This document shows positions 12,624-28,588 of a stretch of 64,000 nt of DNA, piece by piece (within the stretch, counting starts at the first letter, position 1; each line of letters opens with the position of its first letter). Both the position numbers and the translations under genes were made by a program. This DNA is from Candidatus Eremiobacteria bacterium (GTDB lineage Bacteria > Vulcanimicrobiota > Vulcanimicrobiia > Vulcanimicrobiales > Vulcanimicrobiaceae), in NCBI GenBank assembly GCA_963737065.1, contig CAVTRC010000001.1, forward strand, positions 1,504,001 to 1,568,000, written 5' to 3'. The notes beneath the pieces are model-generated. The model saw nothing but the letters and a program-made list of their open reading frames with translations, ran no database searches and was not told the DNA's origin.

Positions 12624-12771
12624 TTTCCACAGCTTCTATGGAAGGCAAGGACCGTCGCCCGCTACCGCGAACCTCGGGCCGGAACTCTGAAAGCCGATGC
12701 GCGTGCTTCCCGCGCGTCGCCTCGCTGACGCCCATCAGGGCTTTCGCCCGTATAGAGGACAACGTTTTCGC

Positions 12772-15030: not shown

Positions 15031-15050
15031 CGTTCTTGAAGTAAGGAACA

Positions 15051-15854
15051 ATGAAGAAACGGCTCATCTCATCTCTCGTTGCTACGGCGATGCTTGCGGC
15101 GGCTATTGCGCCGGCCGCGATCGCCGCCGACTTGACCGATGTCGGCTATATCGATCAGACCGCGCTCGGCAGTCTGCCGCAGTTCGCGGCGGCGAACGCG
15201 CAACTCGCGCAGTATAAAGCCGGGCTCGACCGTCAGTTTGCATCGGCCATGAAATCGGCGCGAACGGATGCCGACAAGCAGAGCATCACGATGCGATTCC
15301 AACAACAATTGCAGGACAAGCAACGCGAGCTCGTCGGGCCGCTGTACCAGCGCGCGCAGCTTGCGCTCGCGTCGGTTGCATCGAAACGCAACCTCTCGAT
15401 CGTCGTCGACAAACGGATCATCGTGTACGGCGGGCAAGACGTCACGAGCGACGTCATCAGCGCGATCCGTAGTCCGCAGGCGCTCAATGCGCCGAGCGCG
15501 TCGCCGCCACCGTCGGAAATCGGCTTCGTCGATCAGTCGGCGCTCGACAATTCGACGAAGGTTCAAGACGCGAACAAACAGCTTCAGCAGTACATGGACC
15601 AACAGCGTCCATCGTTCCAGACGAAGCTCAGAGATGCGAAGACCGACGCGGAAAAGAACGACGTTGCCTCACAGTTCGATAAGCTGGTCGCCGACAAACG
15701 GGACCAGCTCCTCAAGCCGCTCGTGAATCAAACCAAAGACGCCACGGCATCCGTTGCGAAGCAAAAGAACCTGCTGCTCGTCATCGATCGCGGCGACGTG
15801 ATCTACGGAGGCACGGACATCACCCAAGATGTCCAGAATTCGCTCAACAAATAG
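15051..15854 (+). CDS. skp: Skp/OmpH chaperone with two tandem Skp domains
   Basis: Signal peptide; repeats VGYID..VYGGQDVT and IGFVD..IYGGTDIT. Confidence 0.85.
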   Translation: MKKRLISSLVATAMLAAAIAPAAIAADLTDVGYIDQTALGSLPQFAAANAQLAQYKAGLDRQFASAMKSARTDADKQSITMRFQQQLQDKQRELVGPLYQRAQLALASVASKRNLSIVVDKRIIVYGGQDVTSDVISAIRSPQALNAPSASPPPSEIGFVDQSALDNSTKVQDANKQLQQYMDQQRPSFQTKLRDAKTDAEKNDVASQFDKLVADKRDQLLKPLVNQTKDATASVAKQKNLLLVIDRGDVIYGGTDITQDVQNSLNK

Positions 15855-17178
15855 CAGACTTTATCTGTCAAAGATAAACCTTTGCCAGCTAAAGTCGGCG
15901 ACCTCGCGGTCGCTGGTGATCCTCGCGCTAGCCATGTCGGTCGTCGGCTGTTCGCGCGTTGACGTGCACTCGAGCACCGTGCGCGGCGTGGCGTACGTTC
16001 GCATCGACGACGTGATCAAGCACCACCCGCTCTACCCGCAAGTGCAACAGCTTGAGGACGCGGTAACCGCGATCAACCTCGAATCGACGATGCCGCGCGC
16101 GCCGCTTTCGCCACAGGAGATCGCGCAGCAGACCGAGTTGCTCAACAAGCAGCTCAAGGACGCGCAAAACCGCGCGAACGCGGCGATTCAACAGAAGCAG
16201 CGCCAATACAGCGAGCAGGAACGCCAAGCCGATATCGCGGCGCTCAAAGCGGCGAACATCGATCCGCGCGCGGCAGGGCTCGGCGAGCAAATGAACGCGA
16301 CCTCGCAGCAGCAGGCCCAAGCAGCGGCGAATGCTGCGCAGCAAGATTATCAACAGTATCAGCAGAGCGTCGTCGCGCAGGACAACACGGCGGTGACATC
16401 GGTCGCGCAGCAACTCAACAAAGAGGCAGATCAAAAATTCCGCGCGCGCGCCGAGCAGTATCAGCAGCAAGAGACGGATCTGTCACTGCGCCTCGCACAG
16501 CAAGACGCGACGCAACGCCTGGCACTGAAGACCAAAGCGAACAACATCGCGATGGACGCGACGCAACGCAAAGCGGTCGGCGATCAACTTGCGGCACTCG
16601 ACAAGAAAGAGGCGGACCAAGTCGCGGCATTGCGCGCGCAGCACCAGCAGGCTCTCGCTGCGTATCAAAAACAACTGCGCGCTGAAACGACCGCCGCGAT
16701 TCAAAAGCAAGCCGGAGCGATCCGCAGCCAGACGCAAGCGAAGCTTTCGGCGCGCCAGCAGCAAGTCGGTGCCCAATTGCGCGGACTCAACGCCGCGCCC
16801 GTTCCGCAGCAGAGCATTCCGCCCGACGTGCAGCAGCAGCTCGCGAAAATCCATCAGCAGTTCGGGGCGAAGTTCCAGGCCGACGCGCAAGCGACCGTTG
16901 CGCAATACAACGCCACGAAGAGCGATCTCGACAAGCAGTTTGCGGCGCTCCACGGCGAAGACGTCGGAGCGACCGGCGCGGCCGCAAAACAACTGAGCGA
17001 CCTGCAGAAGCGCCACGACGACCTTCTCGCCCAAATTCAGTCCCAGATCCAACGCGAAGCCGATCGAATCGCGAAGGATGACGGGTTCACGGTCGTCTTT
17101 GACAATGTCCAAGCCGCGAACGGCGGCTACGATCTCACCAACGATCTCATCCGCGACGTCGAAAGTCTACACGAGTGA
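15829..17178 (+). CDS. Long coiled-coil Skp-like lipoprotein (true start probably near 15890-15935)
   Basis: Lipobox-like VVGC, VAYVRID N-strand, Q/A-rich helices, GGYDLT C-terminal Skp motif. Confidence 0.72.
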   Translation: MSRIRSTNSRLYLSKINLCQLKSATSRSLVILALAMSVVGCSRVDVHSSTVRGVAYVRIDDVIKHHPLYPQVQQLEDAVTAINLESTMPRAPLSPQEIAQQTELLNKQLKDAQNRANAAIQQKQRQYSEQERQADIAALKAANIDPRAAGLGEQMNATSQQQAQAAANAAQQDYQQYQQSVVAQDNTAVTSVAQQLNKEADQKFRARAEQYQQQETDLSLRLAQQDATQRLALKTKANNIAMDATQRKAVGDQLAALDKKEADQVAALRAQHQQALAAYQKQLRAETTAAIQKQAGAIRSQTQAKLSARQQQVGAQLRGLNAAPVPQQSIPPDVQQQLAKIHQQFGAKFQADAQATVAQYNATKSDLDKQFAALHGEDVGATGAAAKQLSDLQKRHDDLLAQIQSQIQREADRIAKDDGFTVVFDNVQAANGGYDLTNDLIRDVESLHE

Positions 17179-17576
17179 AAAATAAACTGATTCTTACCGC
17201 CCTTGCCGCGGCGTTGCTCGCCGGCTGCGGCAACAGTAGCCCCGTCGGCCTCATCGATATCGGCCGCATCGTGGCCAATTGGAAAACGTATCAGCTGAAC
17301 CAGCAGCAGCTCATGATCGACGAGCAGAAGATCGTGCAAAGCCGCGCATCGAACGCGCAGAAGCAACGCGAAGCGATGGTGCTGCAGAAGAAGTACGCCG
17401 GGATCACCGACGATCTCACCAAGCAGATTCGCGAAGCGGCGCAGAAAGTTGCGTCGCAGAAAAATCTGAAGATCGTCGTGACCAAACAGGGCGTCGGTTA
17501 CGGCGGGGTCGACATCACGGCTGATGTCGAGAAGGTCATGAACATCACGGAAGCGAGCGCGTCACCGAACCCGTAG
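17175..17576 (+). CDS. Short Skp/OmpH-like lipoprotein
   Basis: LLAGC lipobox, VGLIDI, GYGGVDIT. Confidence 0.78.
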   Translation: MKNKLILTALAAALLAGCGNSSPVGLIDIGRIVANWKTYQLNQQQLMIDEQKIVQSRASNAQKQREAMVLQKKYAGITDDLTKQIREAAQKVASQKNLKIVVTKQGVGYGGVDITADVEKVMNITEASASPNP

Positions 17577-17587
17577 GACGACGGAGC

Positions 17588-18616
17588 ATGCTGGGGACGC
17601 TCGCGGATCTGCAAGCGAAAGTCGGGGGGCGCGTTGTCGGCGACGGCTCCGTTACGATTGCACGCGTGTCGTCGGTCGATGAAGCGACGAACGACGCGCT
17701 GACGTTTGCGACCGAGGAGAAGTATCTTGCCGCTGCATTCGCGAGCCCGGCGGCGGCGGTATTGGTCGACGATAGCGTTCCGATGGGCGGCGAACCACCG
17801 CCGAAACCGGTGCTGATCGTCGAGAACGCGCGCGCGGCGCTTGCAACGTTTCTTGCGGCGCTCAAACGCCCGCGCCCGCGCGGACCGTTCCGTCATCCGA
17901 GTGCGATCGTCGAAGAGGGCGCGACGCTCGGCGACGACGTCTATCTCGGTGCAAATGCGTACGTGGGAAGCGGCGCGCACGTCGGCGATCGTTCGACGAT
18001 CGGCGTCGGCGCGTATGTCGGCGCCGACGTGCGAATCGGTGAAGATACGTGGCTGCATCCGCACGCGGTCGTGCATGAAGGCTGCGCGATCGGCAGTCGG
18101 GTAGTGTTGCATACCGGCAGCGTGATCGGCAGCGAAGGCTTTGGCTGGGCGTTCATCGAGGGGCGCTTGGAGCGCATCCCGCAAGTCGGCAACGTAGTGC
18201 TCGACGATGAAGTCGAAATCGGCGCCAATACGTGCGTCGATCGCGCGCAAACCGGAAGCACGCAGATTGGACGCGGCACGAAGATCGATAACTTGGTGCA
18301 GATCGGGCACAACTCGCGCATCGGCATGCACTGCGCGATCGCCGCGCAAACCGGCTTTGCAGGTTCGACGAGCGTCGGAGACTTCGTGAAGATCGCGGGG
18401 CAAGTCGGCACGCGCGGACATATGCACATCGGCTCACGTTCGACGGTTGCCGGACAATCGGGCGTGTGGGGCGACGTCGATGAAGGCGCAATGATTTCGG
18501 GCAATCCCGCGCGCGATCATCGCGAGTGGATGAAAGCGGAGGTCATGATTCGCAGGCTGCCAAAGCTCGTCGCTCGTGTCGACAAGTTGGAGCGCGAGCG
18601 CGAGCACGAAGAATAG
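17588..18616 (+). CDS. lpxD: UDP-3-O-acylglucosamine N-acyltransferase
   Basis: Hexapeptide repeats, IGSEGFG, VEIGANTCVDR, TKIDNLVQIGHN. Confidence 0.96.
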   Translation: MLGTLADLQAKVGGRVVGDGSVTIARVSSVDEATNDALTFATEEKYLAAAFASPAAAVLVDDSVPMGGEPPPKPVLIVENARAALATFLAALKRPRPRGPFRHPSAIVEEGATLGDDVYLGANAYVGSGAHVGDRSTIGVGAYVGADVRIGEDTWLHPHAVVHEGCAIGSRVVLHTGSVIGSEGFGWAFIEGRLERIPQVGNVVLDDEVEIGANTCVDRAQTGSTQIGRGTKIDNLVQIGHNSRIGMHCAIAAQTGFAGSTSVGDFVKIAGQVGTRGHMHIGSRSTVAGQSGVWGDVDEGAMISGNPARDHREWMKAEVMIRRLPKLVARVDKLEREREHEE

Positions 18617-18621
18617 CCGGA

Positions 18622-19427
18622 ATGAACGCCGCAACGCTGCGCGAGCCCTTACGTTTCGAGGGTGTCGGATTACATACCGGAACGCGTGCGACGATGCAAG
18701 TTCAGCCGGCGCAACCCGGCACCGGCTACGTGTTCGTTCGCGGCGAGACGCGTATCCCGCAACCGCGGAACATGCGAACGAATCGCCTCTAGCGACCGTC
18801 ATCGCGCATGAAGGGACCAGCATCTCGACGATCGAGCACATTCTCTCCGCGCTCGTCGCGATGGGCGTTAGCGACGCGGAAATCACGATCGAGGGAGACG
18901 AGATTCCGATTCTCGACGGCAGCGCGAAGATCTACGCGGATGCGATCGCGGAGACCGGACTCCGCACGTCCTCGCAAGCGCGTCCGGTGTTTGCTCCGGC
19001 ACAGCCGTTCGAAATTCGTAACGGCGAGAAAGCCGTCGTCGTTCTTCCCGCCGATGCGTTCCGCGTGCGCTTCGTCGGCGAGTACGGCGCGCCGATCGGC
19101 ACGCACTATTACGATGCGATCATCACGCCTGAACGATACCGGACCGACATCGCGCCCGCACGTACGTTCGCGTTTCTGCGCGACGTGGAAGCGATGCGCG
19201 CGCAAGGTTTGGCGCGCGGCGGCAGCTTGGATAACGCGCTGGTCTATGACGAGGAAGGGCCGATGCAGCCGTTGCAATGGCCGAATGAGGCCGTGCGACA
19301 CAAGGTGCTCGACCTGATCGGAGATTTCGCGCTGCTCGGCGCCTATCCCCAATGCGAAGTAATCGCAATCAAAAGCGGACACGCGCTGCATACGCGCTTG
19401 ACGCGTGAATTGAGGAAACGTGCCTGA
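18622..19427 (+). CDS. lpxC: UDP-3-O-acyl-GlcNAc deacetylase (frameshift near 18760)
   Basis: GVGLHTG in one frame; TIEHILSAL, EIPILDGSA, IAPARTF, HKVLDLIGD, KSGH in the next. Confidence 0.94.
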
Positions 19428-19893
19428 TATCGACATACGGCAGATCATGGAGATTTTGCCGCATCGCTATCCGCTTTTGTTGGTGGATCGCATCATCGAA
19501 CTCGAGCCGGGCGTGCGCGCCCGCGGGTTCAAGAACATCACCTACAACGAACCGGTCTTCACCGGGCACTTTCCAGGCAATCCGCTCTTCCCGGGCGTCT
19601 ACATGATCGAAGCGATGGCGCAGCTCGGCGGCTGCGTCGTGTTGGAACCAGGCGAATTCTCACGCAAGGTTCCCTATCTCGCGGGGATCGACAAGGCAAA
19701 ATTTCGCCGTCCCGTCGTGCCCGGTGACCGGCTGATGATGGAAGTGCGTTTGGTCAAACACAAGCGGAACATCGGCTGGGTCGAAGCGGAAGCGAAAGTC
19801 GAAGAACAGCTTGCGTGCTCCGCCGAACTGATGTTCTCGATCGCATCGGATCCGCGCAGCTTCAGCCTTGACGCGGCCGTCCTCCACGTTTAA
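19420..19893 (+). CDS. fabZ: 3-hydroxyacyl-ACP dehydratase
   Basis: LPHRYPLLLVD, FTGHFP, PGVYMIEAMAQ, FRRPVVPGD. Confidence 0.97.
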   Translation: MPDIDIRQIMEILPHRYPLLLVDRIIELEPGVRARGFKNITYNEPVFTGHFPGNPLFPGVYMIEAMAQLGGCVVLEPGEFSRKVPYLAGIDKAKFRRPVVPGDRLMMEVRLVKHKRNIGWVEAEAKVEEQLACSAELMFSIASDPRSFSLDAAVLHV

Positions 19894-19961: not shown

Positions 19962-20729
19962 GTGATCCATCCGACTGCGATCGTGCATCCTAATGCCAAT
20001 ATTGCGCGCGGGGTGGAGATCGGGCCGTATTGCGTCGTCGGTGAAAACGTGTCGATTTCCGTCGGCACCGTGTTACAGGCACACGTCATCGTCAACGGTT
20101 GGACGGAAGTCGGCGAGAATTGCGAGATCTATCCGTTCGCGACGATCGGTGCAGCATCGCAGGACCGAAAATATCACGGCGAGCGCGCGTACACGAAGAT
20201 CGGCAACAACACGATCGTGCGCGAATACGTCTCGATTCAGCGCGCGACGGGCGAAGATCACGTAACCGCGGTGGGCGACGACTGTTTGTTGCTCGCATAC
20301 ACGCACATCGCGCACAACTGCGTCCTCGGCAACTACGTCACGATGTCGAATCTAGCGCAACTCGCGGGACACGTGGAGGTCGGCGATTACGCGACGATCG
20401 GCGGACAAGCGGGCGTCCATCAATTCACGCGCATCGGTCGCTACGCGATGATCGGCGGCGCAAGTAAGATCAGCAAAGACGTACCGCCGTTCTTTCTCGT
20501 CGAAGGCAATCCCGCGGAACCGTACGGGTTGAACTCGGTCGGGCTGCGACGCGCGGGCTTCAGCATCGCAGAACGCAACGAGATCAAGAAGTTTTACAAG
20601 ATTCTCTACAATCCGAAGATGAACGTCTCGCAGGCGGTCGAAGCGATGAAAGCCGAAGCGTCGAGCGATCCCGGCCGCGAAATCATCGCGTTCCTCGAGT
20701 CTCCCTCGCAACGCGGCATCCTCAAATAG
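19962..20729 (+). CDS. lpxA: UDP-GlcNAc O-acyltransferase
   Basis: IHPTAIV, QDRKY, THIAHNC, LAGHV, VHQFTRIG, GLNSVGLRR. Confidence 0.97.
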   Translation: MIHPTAIVHPNANIARGVEIGPYCVVGENVSISVGTVLQAHVIVNGWTEVGENCEIYPFATIGAASQDRKYHGERAYTKIGNNTIVREYVSIQRATGEDHVTAVGDDCLLLAYTHIAHNCVLGNYVTMSNLAQLAGHVEVGDYATIGGQAGVHQFTRIGRYAMIGGASKISKDVPPFFLVEGNPAEPYGLNSVGLRRAGFSIAERNEIKKFYKILYNPKMNVSQAVEAMKAEASSDPGREIIAFLESPSQRGILK

Positions 20730-20769: not shown

Positions 20770-21894
20770 ATGAGATACTTCTTTTCGAGCGGCGAAGCCT
20801 CAGGCGAGCTAAGTGCAGTGTTGCTCGCCGACGCGATCGCAACCGTCGATCCCGAGGCGCAATTCGAGGGGATCGGTGCAGAACGGATGCGGGAACGCGA
20901 TTTCAATCTGTGGCGCGACCATACCGGGTGGGCGAGTATGGGACCGATCGCGGCGCTTCCGCGAATTCCGAAGTTGCTCAACGCCATGTGGCAAACAGCG
21001 CACCACATCGCCGAAGAGAAACCGGATCTCGTCGTGCTCGTGGACTTCGGCGTGTTCAACATGCGATTGGCGAAAGAGCTGCGCACGAAACACGACTATC
21101 AGGGCCCGATCATGGATCTCTTTCCGCCCGCGACCTGGCTCGACAAAGAGAAAGTCGCCCGCGCCGTTGCGTCGTGGACGGTGCCGGTGACCGCGTTCGC
21201 GCATCAGTACGAGTTTTATAAGCGCCATCGGCTGCCGATCATGTTTTTCGGGCATCCGCTGGCCGGCCGGTACGTGACGCGCGAGGCACGCGCCGCGCCC
21301 GCGAGCGATAACGGCACCGTAGCGCTCTTGCCGGGAAGCCGCGGCACCGAGATGCGGTATCACGTTCCCGCGTTGATTGGTGCGCTCAATGCGTTGCGCG
21401 AACGCCGTCCGCATATGCAGGCAATCTTCGGAGCGGCAAACGACGCATCCGAGCGCGCGATCGCGCGCGCCGTCAAAGACGCGGAACTCGATAACGCCCG
21501 CATCGTGCGCGGGTTGCCGGAAGCGCTGCGCGAGGCCGATGCGGCGTTCGTTGCGTCGGGAACAGCGGTGTTGGAAACGATTCTGCTCGGTGTGCCGGCC
21601 GTTGCGTTGTACATCATCGCACCGTATCTCGTGCATCATGCGCGACGCGTGTATTCCGGCAAATATATTACGCTGCCGAACCTCGTGCTCGGGCGTGAAC
21701 TCGTTCCCGAATTGCTGCAAGACGAGGCAACGCCGGAGCGATTGGCGGAGGCCATGGATCGATTGCTCGACGATCCCTCCGCGCAGTACCGGCATATCGG
21801 TGAAGTGCGCGCTGCGCTCGGCTCGCCGACGGCGCTCGACGACTGCGCGCGATTTGCGGTTGCGCTTGCGAAAGCCGGGCAGCAGCACGCGTGA
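20770..21894 (+). CDS. lpxB: Lipid-A-disaccharide synthase
   Basis: SGEASGE, VDFGVFN, FGHPL, LLPGSRGTE, ASGTAVLE, LPNL, PELLQ. Confidence 0.93.
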   Translation: MRYFFSSGEASGELSAVLLADAIATVDPEAQFEGIGAERMRERDFNLWRDHTGWASMGPIAALPRIPKLLNAMWQTAHHIAEEKPDLVVLVDFGVFNMRLAKELRTKHDYQGPIMDLFPPATWLDKEKVARAVASWTVPVTAFAHQYEFYKRHRLPIMFFGHPLAGRYVTREARAAPASDNGTVALLPGSRGTEMRYHVPALIGALNALRERRPHMQAIFGAANDASERAIARAVKDAELDNARIVRGLPEALREADAAFVASGTAVLETILLGVPAVALYIIAPYLVHHARRVYSGKYITLPNLVLGRELVPELLQDEATPERLAEAMDRLLDDPSAQYRHIGEVRAALGSPTALDDCARFAVALAKAGQQHA

Positions 21895-22682
21895 TCCGGT
21901 TCTATCACACCTCGGATCTGCACGATCATCGCGGCTTTGTGCCGCGCTTGCGCGCATTGCGTGACGAGCGCCCGGGCTTCTACTTCGATTGCGGCGATTC
22001 GCTGCGCGGCAGTCAAACCGTCTATCACCGAAACGAACCGGTCATCGGTGAACTCGATGCCGCGGGCGTCGATGCGCAAGCGATCGGCAATCGCGAGTTT
22101 CACTATCTCTATTCGTTGCTCAGCGCGCGCGCCTCGAAGATGCAGCACCCACTGGTGTGCACGAACCTGCTCGACACGAAGAACCGCGCGCTGCCGTTTA
22201 CCCCTTCTGTCATCCTGAGCTTGTCGAAGGATCGGCTCAATTCAATCGCGCGTAACAATCCTTCGACTGCACTTCGTTCCGCTCAGGATGACACGCGGAT
22301 CCACATCCTTGGGCTACTGATCATGCAGTATCCGGTTGGAAGTCCATACGAGCGAGTCTTCGGGTGGCGATTTCTCGATCCGTGGGATGCGGTCGCGCCG
22401 TACGCGGCGCAGGTTCCGGACGGCGATATGCTGCTCGTCCTCTCGCATGTGGGATTATCACTCGACCGCAAACTCGCAGAGCGTGTGCCGCGCATCGACC
22501 TGATTCTCGGCGGCCACAGCCACGACACATTGTTCGCGCCCGAAGAAGTCAACGGCGTTCCGATCGTGCACGCGGGCCCGTACGGTCAGTACGTTTCTCG
22601 CACGGAACTCGAATATTCGAACCCAAAACGCCGCTTCGCACTTCGCTCGTGCGAGTTGCTGCCGCTGCTCGGGCCTCCATAG
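21891..22682 (+). CDS. Calcineurin-like metallophosphoesterase (5'-nucleotidase N-domain type); candidate UDP-2,3-diacylglucosamine hydrolase
   Basis: TSDLH, DCGDS, IGNRE, LSHVG, GGHSH motifs; no signal peptide; start overlaps lpxB stop. Confidence 0.85.
   Translation: MIRFYHTSDLHDHRGFVPRLRALRDERPGFYFDCGDSLRGSQTVYHRNEPVIGELDAAGVDAQAIGNREFHYLYSLLSARASKMQHPLVCTNLLDTKNRALPFTPSVILSLSKDRLNSIARNNPSTALRSAQDDTRIHILGLLIMQYPVGSPYERVFGWRFLDPWDAVAPYAAQVPDGDMLLVLSHVGLSLDRKLAERVPRIDLILGGHSHDTLFAPEEVNGVPIVHAGPYGQYVSRTELEYSNPKRRFALRSCELLPLLGPP
22208..22293. repeat. Inverted pair of palindromic repeats in-frame in the metallophosphoesterase
   Basis: TGTCATCCTGAGCTTGTCGAAGGA ... TCCTTCGACTGCACTTCGTTCCGCTCAGGATGACA, read as VILSLSKD..PSTALRSAQDD. 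Confidence 0.9.
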
Positions 22683-22692
22683 GGCGAGCTAC

Positions 22693-23847
22693 GTGCGTCT
22701 GCTGTTCGTGTCGAACGGGTACGGCGAAATTGCGATCGCGGATCGCATCGCGGAAGAAATAACACGCCTCGAGCCCGGCACGCAGATCGATCACGTCGCG
22801 CTCGTTGGGGAAAGCCGCGCGCGTTTCATGAACGACGTTGGCCCTCGCCGTACGATGCCGAGCGGCGGCCTCATCGCAATGGCCAACGTACGCAACATCG
22901 CACGCGACGTGCGCGGCGGACTGATCGCCTTGACGCTCGCCCAGCGAAGGTTTTTGAAACACGCGCGCGGCCGTTACGATGGTGCGGCCGCGATCGGCGA
23001 TGTCTTTGCGCTTCTGATGACGCTCGCTGCGCACGCGCCGACGACGTACGTAGGAACCGCGAAGAGCGTGCTGGTCGCACCGTATGGGCCGATGGAACGG
23101 CGCACGATCAAGCGCGCGCGCAATATCTTCGTGCGCGATGATGCAACCGCAGCGGACCTGCGACGCCACCACGTCGACGCTATCGCACCCGGCAACGTCA
23201 TCGTCGACCTGTTCGCGGTCGACGACGACCCGCGCGCCGATGAAGCAGTGGCGCGGTTCAAACCGGCGCTGGCGATCTTTCCCGGGAGCCGCGAGAGCGC
23301 ATATGACGACGGCGAATTTCTACTGCGCGTCATCGCGCGCTGCGCGCAGCAACGTCGCGAACTCGGCGCGGTGTTCTCGGTTGCACCAATGCTCGACGCG
23401 AAACGGTTCGCCGCAGTCGCGCGCGATGCGGGTTTCGACGTGCGCGAGCGCAACGACGAACGCATGCCGTTTGAAGCGTTGCTCGGCGAGCGCGTTGTCG
23501 TGCGCGCGTGGCGCGGAGAAATCGGCGTCTTGTTGCGCCGCGTCGAACTCGTTATCGGGCAAGCGGGTACGGCGAATGAAGCCGCGGCCGCCGCGGGCAT
23601 TCCCGTGATGGCATTCGAACTCGCGGCCGATCGCAAGACGCAGTGGTATCGCATGCGCCAGCAGGGGTTGCTCGGCGAAGCATTGACGGTTCTACCGGCG
23701 GATGTCGAGGTTGCATCGAACGGCGTGCTGCATCTGCTCGAGAACGAGTCGCAACGTGCAGCGATGCGCGCGGTGGGACGCGCGCGAATGGGTCCGCCGG
23801 GCGGCGCCGCCGCAATTGCGCGCGCGATCGTGGGGACGCGCTCGTGA
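22693..23847 (+). CDS. Lipid-A-disaccharide synthase-related GT-B protein (cyanobacterial TIGR03492-like)
   Basis: LFVSNGYGE, MPSGG, VGTAKS, FPGSRE, GQAGTANE pattern; LpxB-like. Confidence 0.75.
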   Translation: MRLLFVSNGYGEIAIADRIAEEITRLEPGTQIDHVALVGESRARFMNDVGPRRTMPSGGLIAMANVRNIARDVRGGLIALTLAQRRFLKHARGRYDGAAAIGDVFALLMTLAAHAPTTYVGTAKSVLVAPYGPMERRTIKRARNIFVRDDATAADLRRHHVDAIAPGNVIVDLFAVDDDPRADEAVARFKPALAIFPGSRESAYDDGEFLLRVIARCAQQRRELGAVFSVAPMLDAKRFAAVARDAGFDVRERNDERMPFEALLGERVVVRAWRGEIGVLLRRVELVIGQAGTANEAAAAAGIPVMAFELAADRKTQWYRMRQQGLLGEALTVLPADVEVASNGVLHLLENESQRAAMRAVGRARMGPPGGAAAIARAIVGTRS

Positions 23848-25058
23848 TACACCGCTGGAACGCATTCGCACCGGTTGGGCTCGCGATCGCGTTCGCATGC
23901 GTGCCGCTCTTTCCGTCGTTCATCACGCTGACGAACGTGCAATTTCCCGGCGTGTCCGTGGTGCCGCTGCCGGCGGCGCTCGTGGTGCTTGCGCTCATGG
24001 GCGTCCTTGCCGTTTGGGGAGTGCCCGCGTTGTTCGTTGCGCCGCACACCGATGTGCCGCTTGCGCGACCGCTCATCGCGTGGTTCTTTGCCGGAATCAT
24101 CAGCGGAATTCTCGGGCTCAATCCGCACGACGGCGCGGTTTTCATCGGCATCTTCGGGCTCTCGCTCATTTGGCACGCCGTTCTCATGCGGTATTACGAC
24201 GCGCCGTACGCCGCGCGCGCGATCTATTGGTCGTACGTCCTTTCTGCGATTCTCGCATGCGGTGCGGCGATCGTGATGCTCACGACGCGCGTTCCCGCGA
24301 GCCTGTATTCGGTTGCAAACGGCCGCGCGGTCGGAACATTCGTCTTGCCGGGCGAACTCGCCGGGTACGCGATCGTATTGTTGCCGATCAGTTATGCGCT
24401 CGCGCGGATCGCGAAAGAACGCGCGCTGCGTATTGCCGCAACCATCGCGCTCCTCGCCGGCGCGCTCGCAATCGTCCTGACGTTCTCGCGTACGGGATGG
24501 ATCGGCCTTGCGTGCGCGATCGCATTTTTCGTGGCGCTGCAGTCACAACGGCAGCGGCGCGGCGTTGCGGTTGCGGCCGCCGTAGTGCTTGCAGGGCTCG
24601 CGATCGTCTTGCTGCTCTTCAACGAGCGTCACAACCCGAGCGAAAACTATACGCGCATTTCGATTTGGCAGGCTGCGCTCGGCGCGATCGATCGCTTCCC
24701 GTTGACGGGGGTCGGGCCGTTCGGCTTTTCACATCTCTATCCGCTCGTGCGCCTGCCGGACGGCGACGAAACCGCGTTCCACGCGCACAGCCTCTATCTC
24801 ACGTTCTTCGCGGAACTGGGCATCGTCGGATTCTCGGCATTTCTGTGGACGCTCTGGGAATTTGCTGCAGAGATGAACCGCCGGCTGCGCGCGGCGTCGG
24901 CGGATGCGCGCATGCTCGGACTTGCAATAGCGGCGGGACTTGTGGGAACGCTCGTGCAAGGGCTGATCGATACCGTGAGCGTGATTATCTTCGGCTTGCT
25001 GCTTCCCATGCTCGCGCTGGCGCTCGCCGCCGCGCGCTCCGGCACCGTTGACGCATGA
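23844..25058 (+). CDS. O-antigen ligase family membrane protein
   Basis: Multi-TM; TFSRTGW, R..IW, P.TGVG, HAHSLYL..AELGIVG. Confidence 0.88.
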   Translation: MIHRWNAFAPVGLAIAFACVPLFPSFITLTNVQFPGVSVVPLPAALVVLALMGVLAVWGVPALFVAPHTDVPLARPLIAWFFAGIISGILGLNPHDGAVFIGIFGLSLIWHAVLMRYYDAPYAARAIYWSYVLSAILACGAAIVMLTTRVPASLYSVANGRAVGTFVLPGELAGYAIVLLPISYALARIAKERALRIAATIALLAGALAIVLTFSRTGWIGLACAIAFFVALQSQRQRRGVAVAAAVVLAGLAIVLLLFNERHNPSENYTRISIWQAALGAIDRFPLTGVGPFGFSHLYPLVRLPDGDETAFHAHSLYLTFFAELGIVGFSAFLWTLWEFAAEMNRRLRAASADARMLGLAIAAGLVGTLVQGLIDTVSVIIFGLLLPMLALALAAARSGTVDA

Positions 25059-25600
25059 CGCGCCGCGCGTTCGCGGCCGGTGCGCTGATCGCGCTTGCAG
25101 CCTGCAATCCGAAATCGCCGAACGGCGGGGTCTCTCCGACGCCGAGCTTGAGCCCGGGCGCGACACCGAGTCCGGTTTCCTTGCGCATCAGCGGCCATGG
25201 GACCGAGAAGCGCCCGGTGCGTTTCATCGAAACAAAGGCGAATCGCAAACAATTCGAGATCCTCACGCGTTCGTTTCAGAGCAAAGGCGCGGCGGGTACG
25301 GCAACGCTCTTGTATAACGACGTGAAGATCAACTTTTTCGGAAAAGATGGGTCGCAGCTGACCTCGACGGCACCGCATGCTACGGTCGATCAGCGGACGA
25401 ATCTGCTTGTCATGACGGGCGGCGTCCACGCGCACAACAACGACGGAATGACGCTGCAATGCGACACGCTCACCTACGACCGTTCAACGGAAATGGTGCA
25501 CGGTGACGGGAACGTCGTGATCACCAATCCCAACGGCTTCCGTGGAACCGGAAACCACGTGGACTCGAATATCGCTCTCACCGACGCAACTATGCAATGA
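25055..25600 (+). CDS. lptC: LptC/LptA-like LPS transport beta-jellyroll protein (lipoprotein signal)
   Basis: ALAAC lipobox; LTSTA..MTGGV..LQCDTLTY..GNVVI; directly upstream of lptB. Confidence 0.78.
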   Translation: MTRRAFAAGALIALAACNPKSPNGGVSPTPSLSPGATPSPVSLRISGHGTEKRPVRFIETKANRKQFEILTRSFQSKGAAGTATLLYNDVKINFFGKDGSQLTSTAPHATVDQRTNLLVMTGGVHAHNNDGMTLQCDTLTYDRSTEMVHGDGNVVITNPNGFRGTGNHVDSNIALTDATMQ

Positions 25601-26343
25601 ACGACAACGAACGCACGATAAAAATCCGCGGACTGGTCAAAAACTACGGCGAACGCACCGTGGTTGCCGGCGTGACGGCCGAAGTCCATCAAGGCGAAGT
25701 GGTGGGACTGCTCGGGCCGAACGGCGCGGGCAAAACCACGACGTTCTACATGGTCGTGGGACTCGTCAAACCCGACGGCGGAACGGTGTTGCTCGATGTC
25801 GGTGAACAGGAGATCGAACTTTCCGGACGCCCGATGTACGAACGCGCGCGCAACGGCATCGGCTACCTCGCCCAAGAGAACTCGATCTTCCGCAAACTTT
25901 CCGTCGAAGACAATATTCGCTTGATCTGGGAACAGAACGGCGTGTCGCGCCGCGAGCAAAATGAACGCTTGCCGTCGCTGCTCGAAGAGTTCGGATTGCG
26001 CGCGCGCATCCACTCGCGCGGCGACAGCTTGTCCGGAGGCGAACGGCGCCGCGTTGAGATCGCGCGCGCGATCGCAATGGAGCCGTCGTTCTTGCTACTC
26101 GACGAACCGTTCACCGGCATCGACCCTATCGCCGTCTCGGACATTCAAGCGATGATCCGCCAATTGCGCGATCGCGGCATCGGCATCCTCATCACCGATC
26201 ACCAAGTTCGAGAAACGCTCGCGATCGTCGACCGTGCGTACATTATGAACAACGGCCGCATCGAAGTTTCCGGAACCGCGCAAGAGGTGCTCGACTCCGC
26301 GATCGCGCGGAAGTTTTATCTCGGCGAAGGATTCCGCCTATAG
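25597..26343 (+). CDS. lptB: LPS export ABC ATPase
   Basis: GPNGAGKTTTFY, YLAQENSIFRKL, LSGGERRRVEIAR, FYLGEGFRL. Confidence 0.97.
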   Translation: MNDNERTIKIRGLVKNYGERTVVAGVTAEVHQGEVVGLLGPNGAGKTTTFYMVVGLVKPDGGTVLLDVGEQEIELSGRPMYERARNGIGYLAQENSIFRKLSVEDNIRLIWEQNGVSRREQNERLPSLLEEFGLRARIHSRGDSLSGGERRRVEIARAIAMEPSFLLLDEPFTGIDPIAVSDIQAMIRQLRDRGIGILITDHQVRETLAIVDRAYIMNNGRIEVSGTAQEVLDSAIARKFYLGEGFRL

Positions 26344-26476
26344 TGACGCCCTCGGTACGTCGCGCGACATGCCCGCCGGTTCTTTTTCGCCTGATGCTTC
26401 GTTGCTCATCGGTCACAACGCTACGGCGTTGCTTCCTCTTCGCGCCTCGCCCCGACGAAAAAGCCCTCGTCGGATC

Positions 26477-27637
26477 ATGTCACGAGACGTATCGAGGGCG
26501 CCACTAGTGGGATTGGTGCGCGCGTTACGGCCCTTGCGCTTCACGATCCTCGACCGGTACATGATCTCGGAGCTTTCGGGTCCGTTTACGTTTGGGTTCG
26601 CGGCGTTCACGTTGATTTTCGCGGCAACGCAGTTGCTCGCCATCGGACGGTTGGTGTCGACGGAGCATGCGCCGTTGTGGGCGGCGACGCAAGTGTTTTT
26701 GTGGTCGCTGCCGTCGTACATGTCGATCGTCATTCCGATGGCCTTGTTGCTCGGGACACTGCTTGCGATTCAGCGTCTCTCGGGCGAGAGCGAGATCGTG
26801 GCGATGAAAGCGGGCGGGATCAGCTTTTGGCGCATGACGCTCCCGCTGCTGATTTCGGGGCTCGTCATGTCGGCGGTCACGTTCGTCGTACAAGAACGTC
26901 TCGCGCCCTATGCCGCCGACCGCGTCGCTTCGATTGAAAACAACACGATTCTGCACACGAACGTCTTCAATCGCGACGTGACGGTCTCGGCGCCGCTGCC
27001 GGGCGGCGGACGGCAAGAAACGATTGCAACGTCGCTCGATCCGCGCACGCAAGCGTTGCTGCACGTCACGCTGATACAGTACGACCGCAACAGCGCACCG
27101 ACGCAAATCGTGTTTGCCGAGCGCGCGAACTTCTCGCAATCGAAATGGGTGCTCGAGAACGCGAGCTTCTACCGGTTCAATCCCGACGGGACGCTCTTAG
27201 CCGAACCGAAGGTTGCGGAGCAGCAGGTTGAACTCGGCGAGAACCCGGCGCAGATCGTCAACCGGATTCAGATGAGCGATCCCGAGCAGATGAGCCGCAA
27301 GCAAATCCGCACGATCGTGCAGTCGGGGCAACTCACGCAGCTCGAATTGCGCAAATACGTCACGACGTATCAGGAGAAGCTCGCGCAGCCGTTTGCTTGT
27401 TTCGTCTTCGTGCTGATCGCGATCCCGTACGGCATGCGCGCCGCGCGCAGCGGCGGCGGTACGAGCGTCGGCTTCGGCGTTGCCGTCGCCATCGTGTTCA
27501 TCTATTACATCGTGACCGTGGTGTTTTCGTATGTCTCCGAAGCGTTTCTGTCGCTCGCCGGGCTTTGGGCCTGGATGCCTAACGTGATCTTTACAATCGT
27601 CGGCCTGCTGCGACTTCGGCGAGCCTCGCAGGTATAG
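26477..27637 (+). CDS. LptF/LptG family permease
   Basis: ILDRY, LSGESEIVAMKAGGIS, AWMPN; 3+3 TM layout. Confidence 0.92.
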   Translation: MSRDVSRAPLVGLVRALRPLRFTILDRYMISELSGPFTFGFAAFTLIFAATQLLAIGRLVSTEHAPLWAATQVFLWSLPSYMSIVIPMALLLGTLLAIQRLSGESEIVAMKAGGISFWRMTLPLLISGLVMSAVTFVVQERLAPYAADRVASIENNTILHTNVFNRDVTVSAPLPGGGRQETIATSLDPRTQALLHVTLIQYDRNSAPTQIVFAERANFSQSKWVLENASFYRFNPDGTLLAEPKVAEQQVELGENPAQIVNRIQMSDPEQMSRKQIRTIVQSGQLTQLELRKYVTTYQEKLAQPFACFVFVLIAIPYGMRAARSGGGTSVGFGVAVAIVFIYYIVTVVFSYVSEAFLSLAGLWAWMPNVIFTIVGLLRLRRASQV

Positions 27638-27643
27638 CGTAGT

Positions 27644-28588
27644 ATGGTTGCCGACATCGTCCGCGGTACGCTCACGATTCTGATCATTATGATCGTGTCG
27701 GGCGTTATCGCGTACGTCGGCGATCGCGTCGGCCATCAAGTCGGCCGCAAGCGCTTGACGCTCTTCGGCATTCGTCCCCGCTACACGTCGACGATCGTGG
27801 CCGTCGGCACCGGCATGTTCATCGCATTGCTCGCGATGCTGATTGCGATCATCTGGTCGCAACAAGTGAAGACCGCGCTCTTCCGCATGAATCAGATCAG
27901 TCTCGAGATTTCGCAGTTGCAAGCACAGAAGAAGAATCTCGAGAGCAAAGTCAACACGGGCCAGCTGGTGGTGCGCGTCGATAGTCTCATGTTTCCGTTT
28001 TTCAAGGAAATCAAGATGGGCACGCCGGCCGACGAGCGATTGAAAGAAGTGCAAGACTTCTACCATCAAGCCGTCGTTTGGATGAATACGAACTACACGC
28101 AACTCGGATTGAAGAAATTCACGCCGCCGGCGGATTTACAGCAGAAACTCGAGCAAATCGCGGCGCAACCGAGCGTGACGGCGGTCGGCATGGATAACGA
28201 TTTACTCGTGTACATGACCGCCGATCAGAACCTCTATCGCAACGACGATATCCACTTCCAGATCAACTTGATTCCCGATTCCAAGCGCCTCAGCAAAGGT
28301 CAGAATATCGGGTACTTGCTCATTCCGGGCGGGCACAACGCGAACATCAATCTTGCGGTCGGTCAACTCATCGGAGTTGTGTCGACGGCCGCGGCTCGGT
28401 ACGGTGGATTGCCGCCGTTCGTCGTCTCGAACACACGCCTCGTGGAAGCATATCCCGCGCTTGGCGTGATGCAGCAGACGCTGGACAAGGGAAGCGGAAA
28501 CTACGCGCTCACGGCATTTGCGGCCGTTGACGTGTACCCTCATGTGGGCGGTGTGCCGATCGTCGTAACGTTGACCAAGACGAAGTGA
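27644..28588 (+). CDS. DUF3084 domain membrane protein
   Basis: GVIAYVGDRVG..VGRKRLTLFGIRPRYTS. Confidence 0.85.
   Translation: MVADIVRGTLTILIIMIVSGVIAYVGDRVGHQVGRKRLTLFGIRPRYTSTIVAVGTGMFIALLAMLIAIIWSQQVKTALFRMNQISLEISQLQAQKKNLESKVNTGQLVVRVDSLMFPFFKEIKMGTPADERLKEVQDFYHQAVVWMNTNYTQLGLKKFTPPADLQQKLEQIAAQPSVTAVGMDNDLLVYMTADQNLYRNDDIHFQINLIPDSKRLSKGQNIGYLLIPGGHNANINLAVGQLIGVVSTAAARYGGLPPFVVSNTRLVEAYPALGVMQQTLDKGSGNYALTAFAAVDVYPHVGGVPIVVTLTKTK

Follow-up and report, generated by a model that had tools for sequence, protein, structure and literature searches.

A single-domain 5'-nucleotidase-type metallophosphoesterase encoded behind lpxB in Eremiobacterota is a candidate fourth UDP-2,3-diacylglucosamine pyrophosphatase

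We identified, directly behind lpxB in the lipid A cluster of an Eremiobacterota genome, a single-domain metallophosphoesterase (MPE) that we propose, with a probability of roughly 55%, to be a fourth UDP-2,3-diacylglucosamine pyrophosphatase, not orthologous to the known enzymes and sharing a His-to-Arg change with LpxH by convergence. The step in question, which yields lipid X, is to our knowledge the only one in lipid A synthesis known to be carried out by unrelated enzymes in different bacteria. For this step, a 2025 review still lists LpxH, LpxI and LpxG (PMC12444477), and lineages with only lpxA, lpxC, lpxD and lpxB and no known lipid X-step enzyme, cyanobacteria included, have been on record since 2010 (PMC3087551). 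In the openly accessible literature, we found no described fourth enzyme and no description of the MPE family in Eremiobacterota, Armatimonadota or cyanobacteria.

The host genome comprises 3.08 Mb in 2 contigs, is 95.3% complete and belongs to the phylum Eremiobacterota. Within the window, the whole stretch of 64,000 nucleotides that was analysed, the following features surround the MPE gene:

17588..18616, + strand: lpxD (Pfam LpxD 2.2e-10, Hexapep 1.9e-26)
18576..19427, + strand: lpxC (Pfam LpxC 7.3e-72)
19420..19893, + strand: fabZ (Pfam FabA 5.4e-32)
19962..20729, + strand: lpxA (Hexapep 4.3e-26, Acetyltransf_11 8.7e-25)
20770..21894, + strand: lpxB, lipid A disaccharide synthase (Pfam LpxB 2.2e-57)
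21891..22682, + strand: MPE, candidate UDP-2,3-diacylglucosamine pyrophosphatase, single-domain 5'-nucleotidase-type metallophosphoesterase with a GNRE motif
22209..22292, + strand: 84-bp in-frame insertion inside the MPE gene (sequence; regex count in the genome)
22693..23847, + strand: LpxB-related GT-B protein of the TIGR03492 family, no assigned function (NCBIfam TIGR03492 7.8e-61)
23643..25058, + strand: O-antigen ligase-like membrane protein (Pfam Wzy_C 8.7e-23 in this frame)
25055..25600, + strand: lptC (Pfam LptC 2.6e-8)
25597..26343, + strand: lptB (ABC_tran 1.3e-32)
26369..27637, + strand: lptF/G-type permease (LptF_LptG 3.8e-74)

The lpx run D, C, A and B recognised in an earlier, sequence-only reading was confirmed by Pfam, which also placed FabZ inside it, in the order LpxD-LpxC-FabZ-LpxA-LpxB. 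With 205.9 bits, the TIGR03492 protein fell short of the cut-off of its NCBIfam model, which is 219.2 bits. The true start of the Wzy_C gene probably lies downstream of position 23847. An open reading frame at 23702-25051, considered as an unknown gene, was rejected as a wrong reading frame with an Arg-rich translation, the Wzy_C gene being the real one; because the frame is wrong, conservation at this position in related loci is that of DNA only. The C-terminal extension of a fused LpxB (family f6) showed no homology to this translation, a comparison that the wrong frame renders meaningless.

MPE spans 263 amino acids, and its GTG start overlaps the 3' end of lpxB at 21891-21894, so that the two genes are translationally coupled as originally claimed. 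Strand 1 and motif I (YHTSDLHDH), which begins at residue 9, stand at the very N-terminus; there is no earlier start in the open frame, and a crude hydropathy scan detected no transmembrane-like segment. For these reasons, the protein lacks a signal peptide, in agreement with the earlier description of it as signal-less. The motifs are D9-x-H11, G35-D36, G66-N67-R68-E69, H186 and G208-H209-x-H211, and all six metal ligands of the metallophosphoesterase superfamily are present. The GNRE of the earlier reading, here placed at residues 66–69, where the superfamily has GNH(D/E), is invariant in the 28 aligned close homologues and in the wider alignments (62/62 and 94/94), as are D9, H11, D36, N67, H186, H209 and H211 in 94 aligned sequences from both clades of the family. 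Arginine occupies motif III in all 66 full-length short relatives (representatives of 225–290 residues); GNH(D/E) is found in 52 of 57 long two-domain relatives (representatives of at least 445 residues), and all three long proteins that carry GNRE are fusions. The gene is real: a relative was found in 199 of the 201 genomes sampled from the phylum, and the motif does not vary among the 28 close homologues. The 84-bp insertion, whose ends form perfect 12-bp terminal inverted repeats, adds 28 residues to a surface loop at about residues 107–134, modelled with pLDDT of 53–64; across the 28 aligned homologues, insertions at this loop vary in length.

The AlphaFold2 (AF2) model of MPE (pLDDT 93.9) has the fold of a 5'-nucleotidase N-domain. 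Foldseek matched it to structures of the 5'-nucleotidase family with E-values of 7.7e-19 to 1e-14, and VIA superposed it on the N-domains of YunD, NadN, CD73, UshA and SoxB with Z of 25–27 and rmsd of 2.2–3.0 over about 230 residues, its Z-scores for the family as a whole running from 24.1 to 27.3. From residue 93 to 175, the model has three beta strands with two short helices, the arrangement seen in 5'-nucleotidase N-domains, and it contains no four-helix insertion or acyl-chain lid of the LpxH type. LpxH was absent among the 50 Foldseek and VIA matches listed, which does not show that the folds differ. The NCBIfam matches at E<=1 numbered 14, did not include the LpxH model TIGR01854 and comprised SoxB (1.5e-21), UshA-like (7.8e-16) and UshA (1.8e-9), all far under their cut-offs. 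The only Pfam domain was Metallophos (PF00149), at 21.1 bits against a cut-off of 21.5; relatives of MPE scored 36.7–46.5 bits with this model, and a fusion protein, P0154, scored 39.2 bits. A profile of the MPE family matched UshA with E 1.1e-34, and there was no LpxH chain among the 48 PDB sequences that it matched at E<=10. Matches to MPE cover only the N-terminal part of chains of 500–560 residues, up to about residue 350. Profile, predicted fold and the lack of a second Pfam domain uphold the claim that MPE resembles only the N-domain of UshA and the 5'-nucleotidases. A predicted complex of MPE with the TIGR03492 protein scored 0.00, which is uninformative in either direction.

The view that no recognisable lpxH or lpxI accompanies this cluster was borne out by profile searches of the host genome. 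TIGR01854, whose family cut-off is 190 bits, had no match at E<=1, and the best matches of LpxI_C (E 0.86) and LpxI_N (E 0.12) fell under cut-off and away from the MPE gene. Across the phylum, LpxH was found in 0 of 201 sampled genomes, and LpxI_C (PF06230) had no match at E<=1e-5 in the same set. The other phosphoesterases of the host genome are encoded by eight ORFs, none of them LpxH-like, and the sole membrane-bound one is found in 60 of the 201 genomes. Searches of the host genome found neither KdtA nor LpxK, and across the phylum LpxK gave a single, weak match (1/201). MPE itself is not an orthologue of LpxH or LpxI, whose models it does not match, and is set apart from LpxG by motif and topology.

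The phylum survey of 201 sampled genomes supported co-occurrence with lpxB, which had been proposed as a check: MPE, LpxB and the TIGR03492 protein are each present in 199. MPE is missing from two fragmented assemblies, G130 (220 contigs) and G197 (410 contigs), which also lack TIGR03492 and have weaker LpxB matches. In 80 related loci, all of the Eremiobacterota type, where MPE identity ranges from 64 to 85%, the order lpxB-MPE-TIGR03492 is kept wherever the contig is long enough: lpxB lies immediately upstream in 78, the other two having no upstream room, and TIGR03492 immediately downstream in 79, the last locus ending at the gene. In the close families of the phylum, nearly every genome carries MPE, and in one copy. 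Among 20 genomes from other classes of the phylum, TIGR03492 abuts MPE in 19, and 13 have lpxB on the MPE contig no more than 5 kb away. Fusions occur with both neighbours: P0154 (650 residues) joins MPE to a full TIGR03492 domain (6e-91), and P0128, P0157, P0260, P0129 and P0145 join LpxB sequence to MPE. The MPE gene is locked to lpxB across the phylum; its tightest partner, by most conserved neighbour and cleanest fusion, is the TIGR03492 gene. Among control genomes, those of Deinococcus radiodurans and Synechococcus elongatus also gave TIGR03492 matches, the former with no match to LpxB (PF02684).

The sister clade of MPE belongs to Armatimonadota, judged by source names. The metagenome contexts were gathered with an alignment of this clade, narrower than the 62-sequence one, and are therefore biased to it. 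The MPE gene, with GNRE kept, lies within 60 bp behind kdsD-kdsC in 38 of 56 loci and by lpxB in only two, and 54 have no TIGR03492 match in flanks of up to 7 kb on each side.

We favour the lipid X reading because the lpx pathway is present and LpxH and LpxI were not found, because MPE tracks LpxB across the 201 genomes from a fixed position in the lpx cluster, and because some proteins fuse MPE to LpxB or to TIGR03492. It is further favoured because the metal site is intact in a confidently modelled 5'-nucleotidase N-domain fold, because the motif III arginine, described as unique to LpxH in two studies (Okada 2016, PMC5016852; Opiyo 2010, PMC3087551), occurs in MPE, because no other phosphoesterase of the host is LpxH-like and the membrane-bound one is confined to 60 of 201 genomes, and because kdsD-kdsC gives the sister clade an independent link to LPS. 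Several observations count against it: the model lacks the helical insertion or lid that buries the acyl chains in LpxH; the nucleoside-binding C-terminal domain is missing and a site that could hold uridine is not evident; the tightest linkage is to TIGR03492, which also occurs in D. radiodurans without an LpxB match; and the sister clade seldom places MPE by lpxB. Nor does a missing LpxH by itself point to the MPE family, because cyanobacteria also lack LpxH and no cyanobacterial name is among the 334 matches listed from three homologue searches. The sequence-only reading, a non-orthologous and possibly convergent lipid X-producing enzyme, stands for non-orthology, fold, arginine, the lack of LpxH and LpxI matches and the lpxB linkage, and its catalytic part is that of a candidate.

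In the proposed reaction, MPE would be a cytoplasmic binuclear-metal pyrophosphatase that converts UDP-2,3-diacylglucosamine to UMP and lipid X, the latter being the acceptor substrate for the LpxB encoded just upstream. A metal-bound hydroxide would attack the alpha-phosphate of the UDP moiety, as in the action of UshA on UDP-sugars and in LpxH (Okada 2016). Arg68 would stand in for the general-acid histidine and hold the beta-phosphate, which ends up as the 1-phosphate of lipid X; the histidine may be dispensable because the leaving group is a phosphate. The pathway so served would operate without LpxK and KdtA. In it, the TIGR03492 glycosyltransferase probably extends the lipid A disaccharide, the Wzy_C-type ligase adds O-antigen, and LptC, LptB and LptF/G export the product.

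An alternative that we regard as unlikely is that MPE is a lipid A or LPS phosphoesterase working with the TIGR03492 glycosyltransferase and not with LpxB. Its activity might, for example, be to remove or trim a 1-phosphate or diphosphate on a lipid A intermediate, or to hydrolyse some other glycolipid precursor linked to a nucleotide; TIGR03492 could then attach the first sugar of the core where KdtA and LpxK are lacking. The abutting genes in close loci and other classes, the full-length fusion P0154, the shared absence from the same two genomes and the lack of KdtA and LpxK all suit such a partnership, as does cyanobacterial LPS, reported to be without phosphate and Kdo (PMC3087551). However, the His-to-Arg change would fit a phosphoanhydride better than a sugar-phosphate monoester, as we infer from the LpxH work (PMC5016852); nearly all sister-clade loci keep GNRE with no TIGR03492 match nearby; and the lipid X step would still have no enzyme.

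That MPE acts in the cytoplasm as a general pyrophosphatase on nucleotides or UDP-sugars, with a non-obligatory role of supply or quality control in LPS operons such as clearing surplus UDP-linked intermediates, appears improbable. Its nearest relatives are indeed broad-specificity nucleotidases and UDP-sugar hydrolases, it occurs in two different operon contexts, and a lipid-binding module is not visible in the model; however, such a role accords poorly with a near-universal, single-copy gene that keeps its place between two glycosyltransferase genes of the lipid A type, is fused with these in some genomes and is as strongly conserved as the 80 loci indicate. That MPE scaffolds or regulates LpxB or TIGR03492 without catalysis, its chemistry lost with the catalytic histidine, is hardly credible: the replaced histidine and the fusions would allow it, but the metal-site residues listed above are invariant in both clades, and LpxH is fully active with the same arginine (PMC5016852).

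Returning to the lipid X reading, we extend it tentatively, at odds a little short of even, to the short GNRE proteins as a class. These may constitute a fourth class of UDP-2,3-diacylglucosamine pyrophosphatase with an evolutionary origin of its own, a 5'-nucleotidase catalytic domain stripped of export signal and C-terminal domain that converged on the His-to-Arg switch of LpxH in two diderm phyla (Eremiobacterota and, by source names, Armatimonadota). The class would complete a minimal LPS line in Eremiobacterota, consisting of LpxA, LpxC, LpxD, MPE, LpxB, the TIGR03492 transferase, O-antigen ligase and Lpt, without LpxK or KdtA and with TIGR03492 in place of the Kdo transferase. If correct, a fourth enzyme would account for the lipid X step in at least one soil phylum that is widespread, exemplify convergent active-site evolution through the same switch in two distant branches of the superfamily, and open a way into a minimal LPS pathway that lacks Kdo and the 4'-phosphate. 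The function is directly testable with existing tools, namely an E. coli lpxH complementation screen (PMC4807358) and the cultured Vulcanimicrobium alpinus (PMC9758169).

Among known enzymes, the two-domain family of UshA, 5'-nucleotidase, NadN, YunD and SoxB has the catalytic N-domain fold predicted for MPE. UshA hydrolyses UDP-sugars to UMP and sugar-1-phosphate, and the C-terminal domain of 5'-nucleotidases binds the nucleoside. Unlike UshA, 5'-nucleotidase and SoxB, MPE has no C-terminal substrate-binding domain (263 residues versus about 500–560) and no signal peptide of the kind that exports periplasmic or surface enzymes, carries arginine for the catalytic histidine and is encoded in a lipid A operon. 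LpxI (PF06230/PF17930), whose gene in many genomes sits between lpxA and lpxB, acts at the step for which MPE is a candidate, with an unrelated fold and chemistry.

LpxH, whose motif III reads GNRD, resembles MPE as a cytoplasmic member of the metallophosphoesterase superfamily of about 240 residues with arginine in this motif, and the reaction proposed for MPE, attack at the alpha-phosphate, is the same. The two have no detectable sequence relation, MPE coming from the 5'-nucleotidase N-domain branch of the superfamily, and MPE, unlike LpxH, is encoded inside the lpx cluster. In the P. aeruginosa structure report (PMC5016852), Arg80 of LpxH holds the lipid X phosphate and a helical insertion domain forms the acyl-chain cavity; the model of MPE is without this domain. 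LpxG of Chlamydia (CT461) retains GNHD and carries a transmembrane helix at its N-terminus (PMC4807358), whereas MPE has GNRE and, in the crude hydropathy scan, no transmembrane-like segment. As proposed here for MPE, LpxG, a phosphoesterase of the calcineurin-like type, takes the place of LpxH in a lineage without LpxH and LpxI, and, by the same account (PMC4807358), it was likewise found because the rest of the pathway is conserved.

In the Eremiobacterota genome G000 (3.08 Mb, 2 contigs, 95.3% complete), the genes from 12.7 to 28.6 kb of the window all lie on one strand, and the candidate phosphoesterase is located among them between two GT19-type transferases:

12697-17576 (+), bamA, then three OmpH/Skp-like genes
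17588-18616 (+), lpxD
18576-19427 (+), lpxC
19420-19893 (+), fabZ
19962-20729 (+), lpxA
20770-21894 (+), lpxB
21891-22682 (+), candidate phosphoesterase
22693-23847 (+), LpxB-related TIGR03492 gene
frame of 23643-25058 (+), Wzy_C-type O-antigen ligase
25055-25600 (+), lptC
25597-26343 (+), lptB
26369-27637 (+), lptF/G-type permease
27644-28588 (+), DUF3084 gene

Close homologues of the candidate carry the source names Candidatus Baltobacteraceae, Aquilonibacter, Eremiobacteraeota and Vulcanimicrobiota. The three consecutive OmpH/Skp-like genes (15051-17576), the middle one encoding 449 aa with an OmpH match confined to its last 110 residues, are retained between bamA and lpxD in related loci extending that far; the DUF3084 gene directly 3' of lptF/G keeps its place in all related loci that reach it. 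The long ORFs 23643-25058 and 23702-25051 overlap but are read in different frames. The 471-aa frame 23643-25058 contains the Wzy_C match (8.7e-23), and its translation probably begins beyond the TIGR03492 stop (23847). The 449-aa ATG frame 23702-25051 was rejected as a gene because its translation is Arg-rich nonsense.

The candidate spans 263 aa, and its GTG start overlaps the lpxB stop, in agreement with the coupling proposed by the sequence-only reading. The first strand and motif I are placed right at the N-terminus, there is no earlier in-frame start and no TM-like segment was found in the protein, which bears out its description as signal-less; the candidate is cytoplasmic. Its motifs (D9-x-H11, GD36, G66-N67-R68-E69, H186 and GH209-x-H211) comprise an intact binuclear metal site, with the previously noted GNRE in place of GNH(D/E), so that Arg replaces His in motif III. 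By sequence, the candidate resembles solely the N-terminal halves of SoxB (1.5e-21), UshA-like (7.8e-16) and UshA (1.8e-9) proteins, all far under the family cut-offs. Its family profile retrieved UshA and CD73 from the PDB sequences at about 1e-34, with no LpxH chain among the 48 PDB sequences at E<=10. The confident AlphaFold2 model, built from 94 sequences (pLDDT 93.9, pTM 0.91), superposes over ~230 residues on the N-domains of YunD, NadN, Thermus 5'-nucleotidase, CD73, UshA and SoxB (Z 27.3-24.1) and lacks a helical insertion domain. Sequence, profile and model thus all match N-domains, as first suggested, and the nucleoside-binding domain is lost. A surface loop of the candidate contains an 84-bp element inserted in frame (22209-22292) with perfect 12-bp terminal inverted repeats. 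Genome-wide, one arm 12-mer is present 15 times and the other 7 times, where 0.37 would be expected. Insertions of other lengths occur at this loop among close relatives, most of which have none.

Searches of the G000 genome returned no match to the LpxH model TIGR01854 at E<=1 and sub-threshold noise at most for LpxI_C and LpxI_N, consistent with the earlier statement that no lpxH or lpxI is recognisable in the lpx run. LpxK and KdtA were not found in this genome, and a weak 27.9-bit match to the KdsB-type family lies inside a 468-aa frame. The genome encodes eight metallophosphoesterase ORFs including the candidate; the remaining seven score as YfcE-type (three), CpdA-type with a leader, TIGR00282, PdeM and an unknown membrane protein (one each). 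PMC4807358 defines LpxG by GNHD and an N-terminal TM helix; by this definition only the membrane protein, which has a GNND motif and is found in 60/201 genomes of the phylum, could be an LpxG. The proposed search for all three enzymes gave no LpxH or LpxI match over cut-off, with LpxG judged by published motif and topology. Outside the window, G000:C1:1077409-1079957 encodes two tandem paralogous GNND phosphoesterases, 40% identical, patchy in the phylum (60/201 genomes); the ends of the 456-aa copy look hydrophobic on inspection.

A profile search over 1.84 billion representatives gave 9904 matches at E<=1e-3, 87 of them at E<=1e-30. Among the best 150 of the 9904, all 66 proteins of 225-290 aa have Arg in motif III (65 GNRE, 1 GDRK); the 57 of at least 445 aa comprise 52 with GNH(D/E) and no GNR, three with GNRE and two with neither. 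The three long GNRE proteins are fusions. P0154, in which a complete TIGR03492 domain (6e-91) comes after the phosphoesterase, looks whole. In P0128 and P0157 LpxB sequence precedes the phosphoesterase; on short contigs, reading through the overlapping stop and start may account for some of the LpxB fusions. The short proteins form two clades with 100/99 support: clade A, containing the candidate and other classes of the phylum, and clade B, from Armatimonadota or Abditibacteriota wherever source names are given. When a clade A member with a long branch was the query, the named matches were again confined to Eremiobacterota, Vulcanimicrobiaceae and Armatimonadota; the Atlas leads are in accord, with Bacillota in addition for related clusters. 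The description that fits the candidate best is a separate single-domain branch of the 5'-nucleotidase catalytic domain.

We sampled 201 genomes of the phylum (21 families, 80 genera, G000 included), scoring the candidate with its family profile at E<=1e-20. The candidate, LpxB and TIGR03492 were each detected in 199/201 genomes, confirming the expected co-occurrence with lpxB; LpxH and LpxI_C were found in 0/201, and LpxK in 1/201 (26.7 bits). Because kin are not independent, these counts should be read as one trait fixed in the phylum and not as 199 independent confirmations. Two genomes flagged as unpublished, G127 and G177, are counted here; each has all three genes, and without them the count is 197/199. 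Both genomes without the candidate, G130 and G197, are fragmented assemblies in which TIGR03492 is also missing and LpxB matches more weakly; the cluster was probably split by a contig break.

In 80 closely related loci of the genome collection (64-85% identical to the query), lpxB is directly upstream in 78, the other two contigs beginning at the gene, and TIGR03492 is directly downstream in 79, the remaining contig ending at the gene. Across 20 genomes of other classes, analysed from hit positions, TIGR03492 adjoins the candidate on the same strand in 19, and lpxB is on the same contig within 5 kb in 13; in the rest it is on a different contig or unlisted. One to three genes separate lpxB and the candidate in these classes, among them an ICMT/PEMT-type membrane methyltransferase (L175:7786-8364, L176:5383-5967, L173:3841-4464). 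This gene recalls LmtA of Leptospira, the lipid A 1-phosphate methyltransferase; if the parallel holds, the lipid A of those classes would carry a 1-phosphate. Other classes also have a GFO/IDH/MocA oxidoreductase between fabZ and lpxA (L175:3575-4546, L176:2421-3422); it is possibly GnnA-like and would then serve a 2,3-diamino sugar backbone. L173:1404-3845 and another 11 open frames (807-857 aa; family f6, genera g51 and g75) encode LpxB fused at its C-terminus to an extension of ~450 aa that matches no family.

Clade B has a second genomic context. Of 80 metagenome loci found with clade B, 24 (L149-L172, 31-34% identity) hold the long 5'-nucleotidase-like form and were excluded. Among the 56 short-form loci (L093-L148), only L141 and L142 show the order lpxA-lpxB-gene-TIGR03492. 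The phosphoesterase instead follows a KdsC-type phosphatase on the same strand, within 60 bp in 38/56 and within 1 kb in three more, with a KdsD/KpsF isomerase upstream of KdsC (bit scores 144 for KdsC, cut-off 107, and 311.6 for KpsF, cut-off 203.7) and an ArnT/PMT-like GT-C membrane protein and a polyprenyl-phosphate glycosyltransferase downstream. The hot-spring-type contig L141 (2473-4766) contains two tandem TIGR03492 genes after the phosphoesterase, then a Wzy_C ligase and lpt genes. The family is therefore linked to LPS genes by two distinct arrangements, and in Armatimonadota it has no tie to either lpxB or TIGR03492.

The gene family is real and well defined, and the genomic evidence that it acts in lipid A or LPS synthesis is strong. 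Having given up the general acid, the candidate would handle a phosphoanhydride, because such a leaving group needs no protonation, and cleavage of UDP-2,3-diacylglucosamine to UMP and lipid X would be the sole phosphoanhydride cleavage missing from the pathway. UshA, its nearest characterised relative, cuts UDP-sugars in the way proposed here. We consider the candidate a fourth UDP-2,3-diacylglucosamine pyrophosphatase with a probability of roughly 55%. Of the original proposal, the separation from LpxH and LpxI by models, the GNRE motif and the lpxB linkage stand, whereas the case for lipid X production is good but unproven. Against it, the model predicts no acyl-chain lid, and the closest genomic partner is TIGR03492. 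That family is not confined to lipid A in all organisms: it scored above cut-off in two control genomes, Synechococcus elongatus and Deinococcus radiodurans, and in the second of these LpxB had no match over cut-off. According to PMC3087551, Cyanobacteria have the same four-enzyme pathway, yet they apparently lack this family: none of the 334 rows listed in three named searches bears a cyanobacterial name, which is weak evidence as most rows are nameless.

The close partnership would also suit a lipid A phosphoesterase linked to TIGR03492, a possible but rather unlikely role. A general UDP-sugar or nucleotide pyrophosphatase is improbable, and with its metal site intact the protein is very unlikely to be non-catalytic.

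A 2025 review still names LpxH, LpxI and LpxG as the enzymes of the lipid X step (PMC12444477), and full-text literature searches yielded no description of a fourth. According to PMC9758169, the cultured member Vulcanimicrobium alpinus possesses an outer membrane and is rich in 3-hydroxy iso-C13/C14 fatty acids, which fits with real lipid A. In LpxH, as stated in PMC5016852, the motif III Arg is joined by a bidentate salt bridge to the lipid X phosphate, the substrate beta-phosphate, and water attacks the alpha-phosphate; in other metallophosphoesterases His at this position is a proton donor or stabiliser. The same source and PMC3087551 call this Arg unique to LpxH. The candidate falls outside LpxH, LpxI, LpxG (by its published description) and the two-domain 5'-nucleotidases; it is like LpxH in its proposed reaction and like UshA in its fold.
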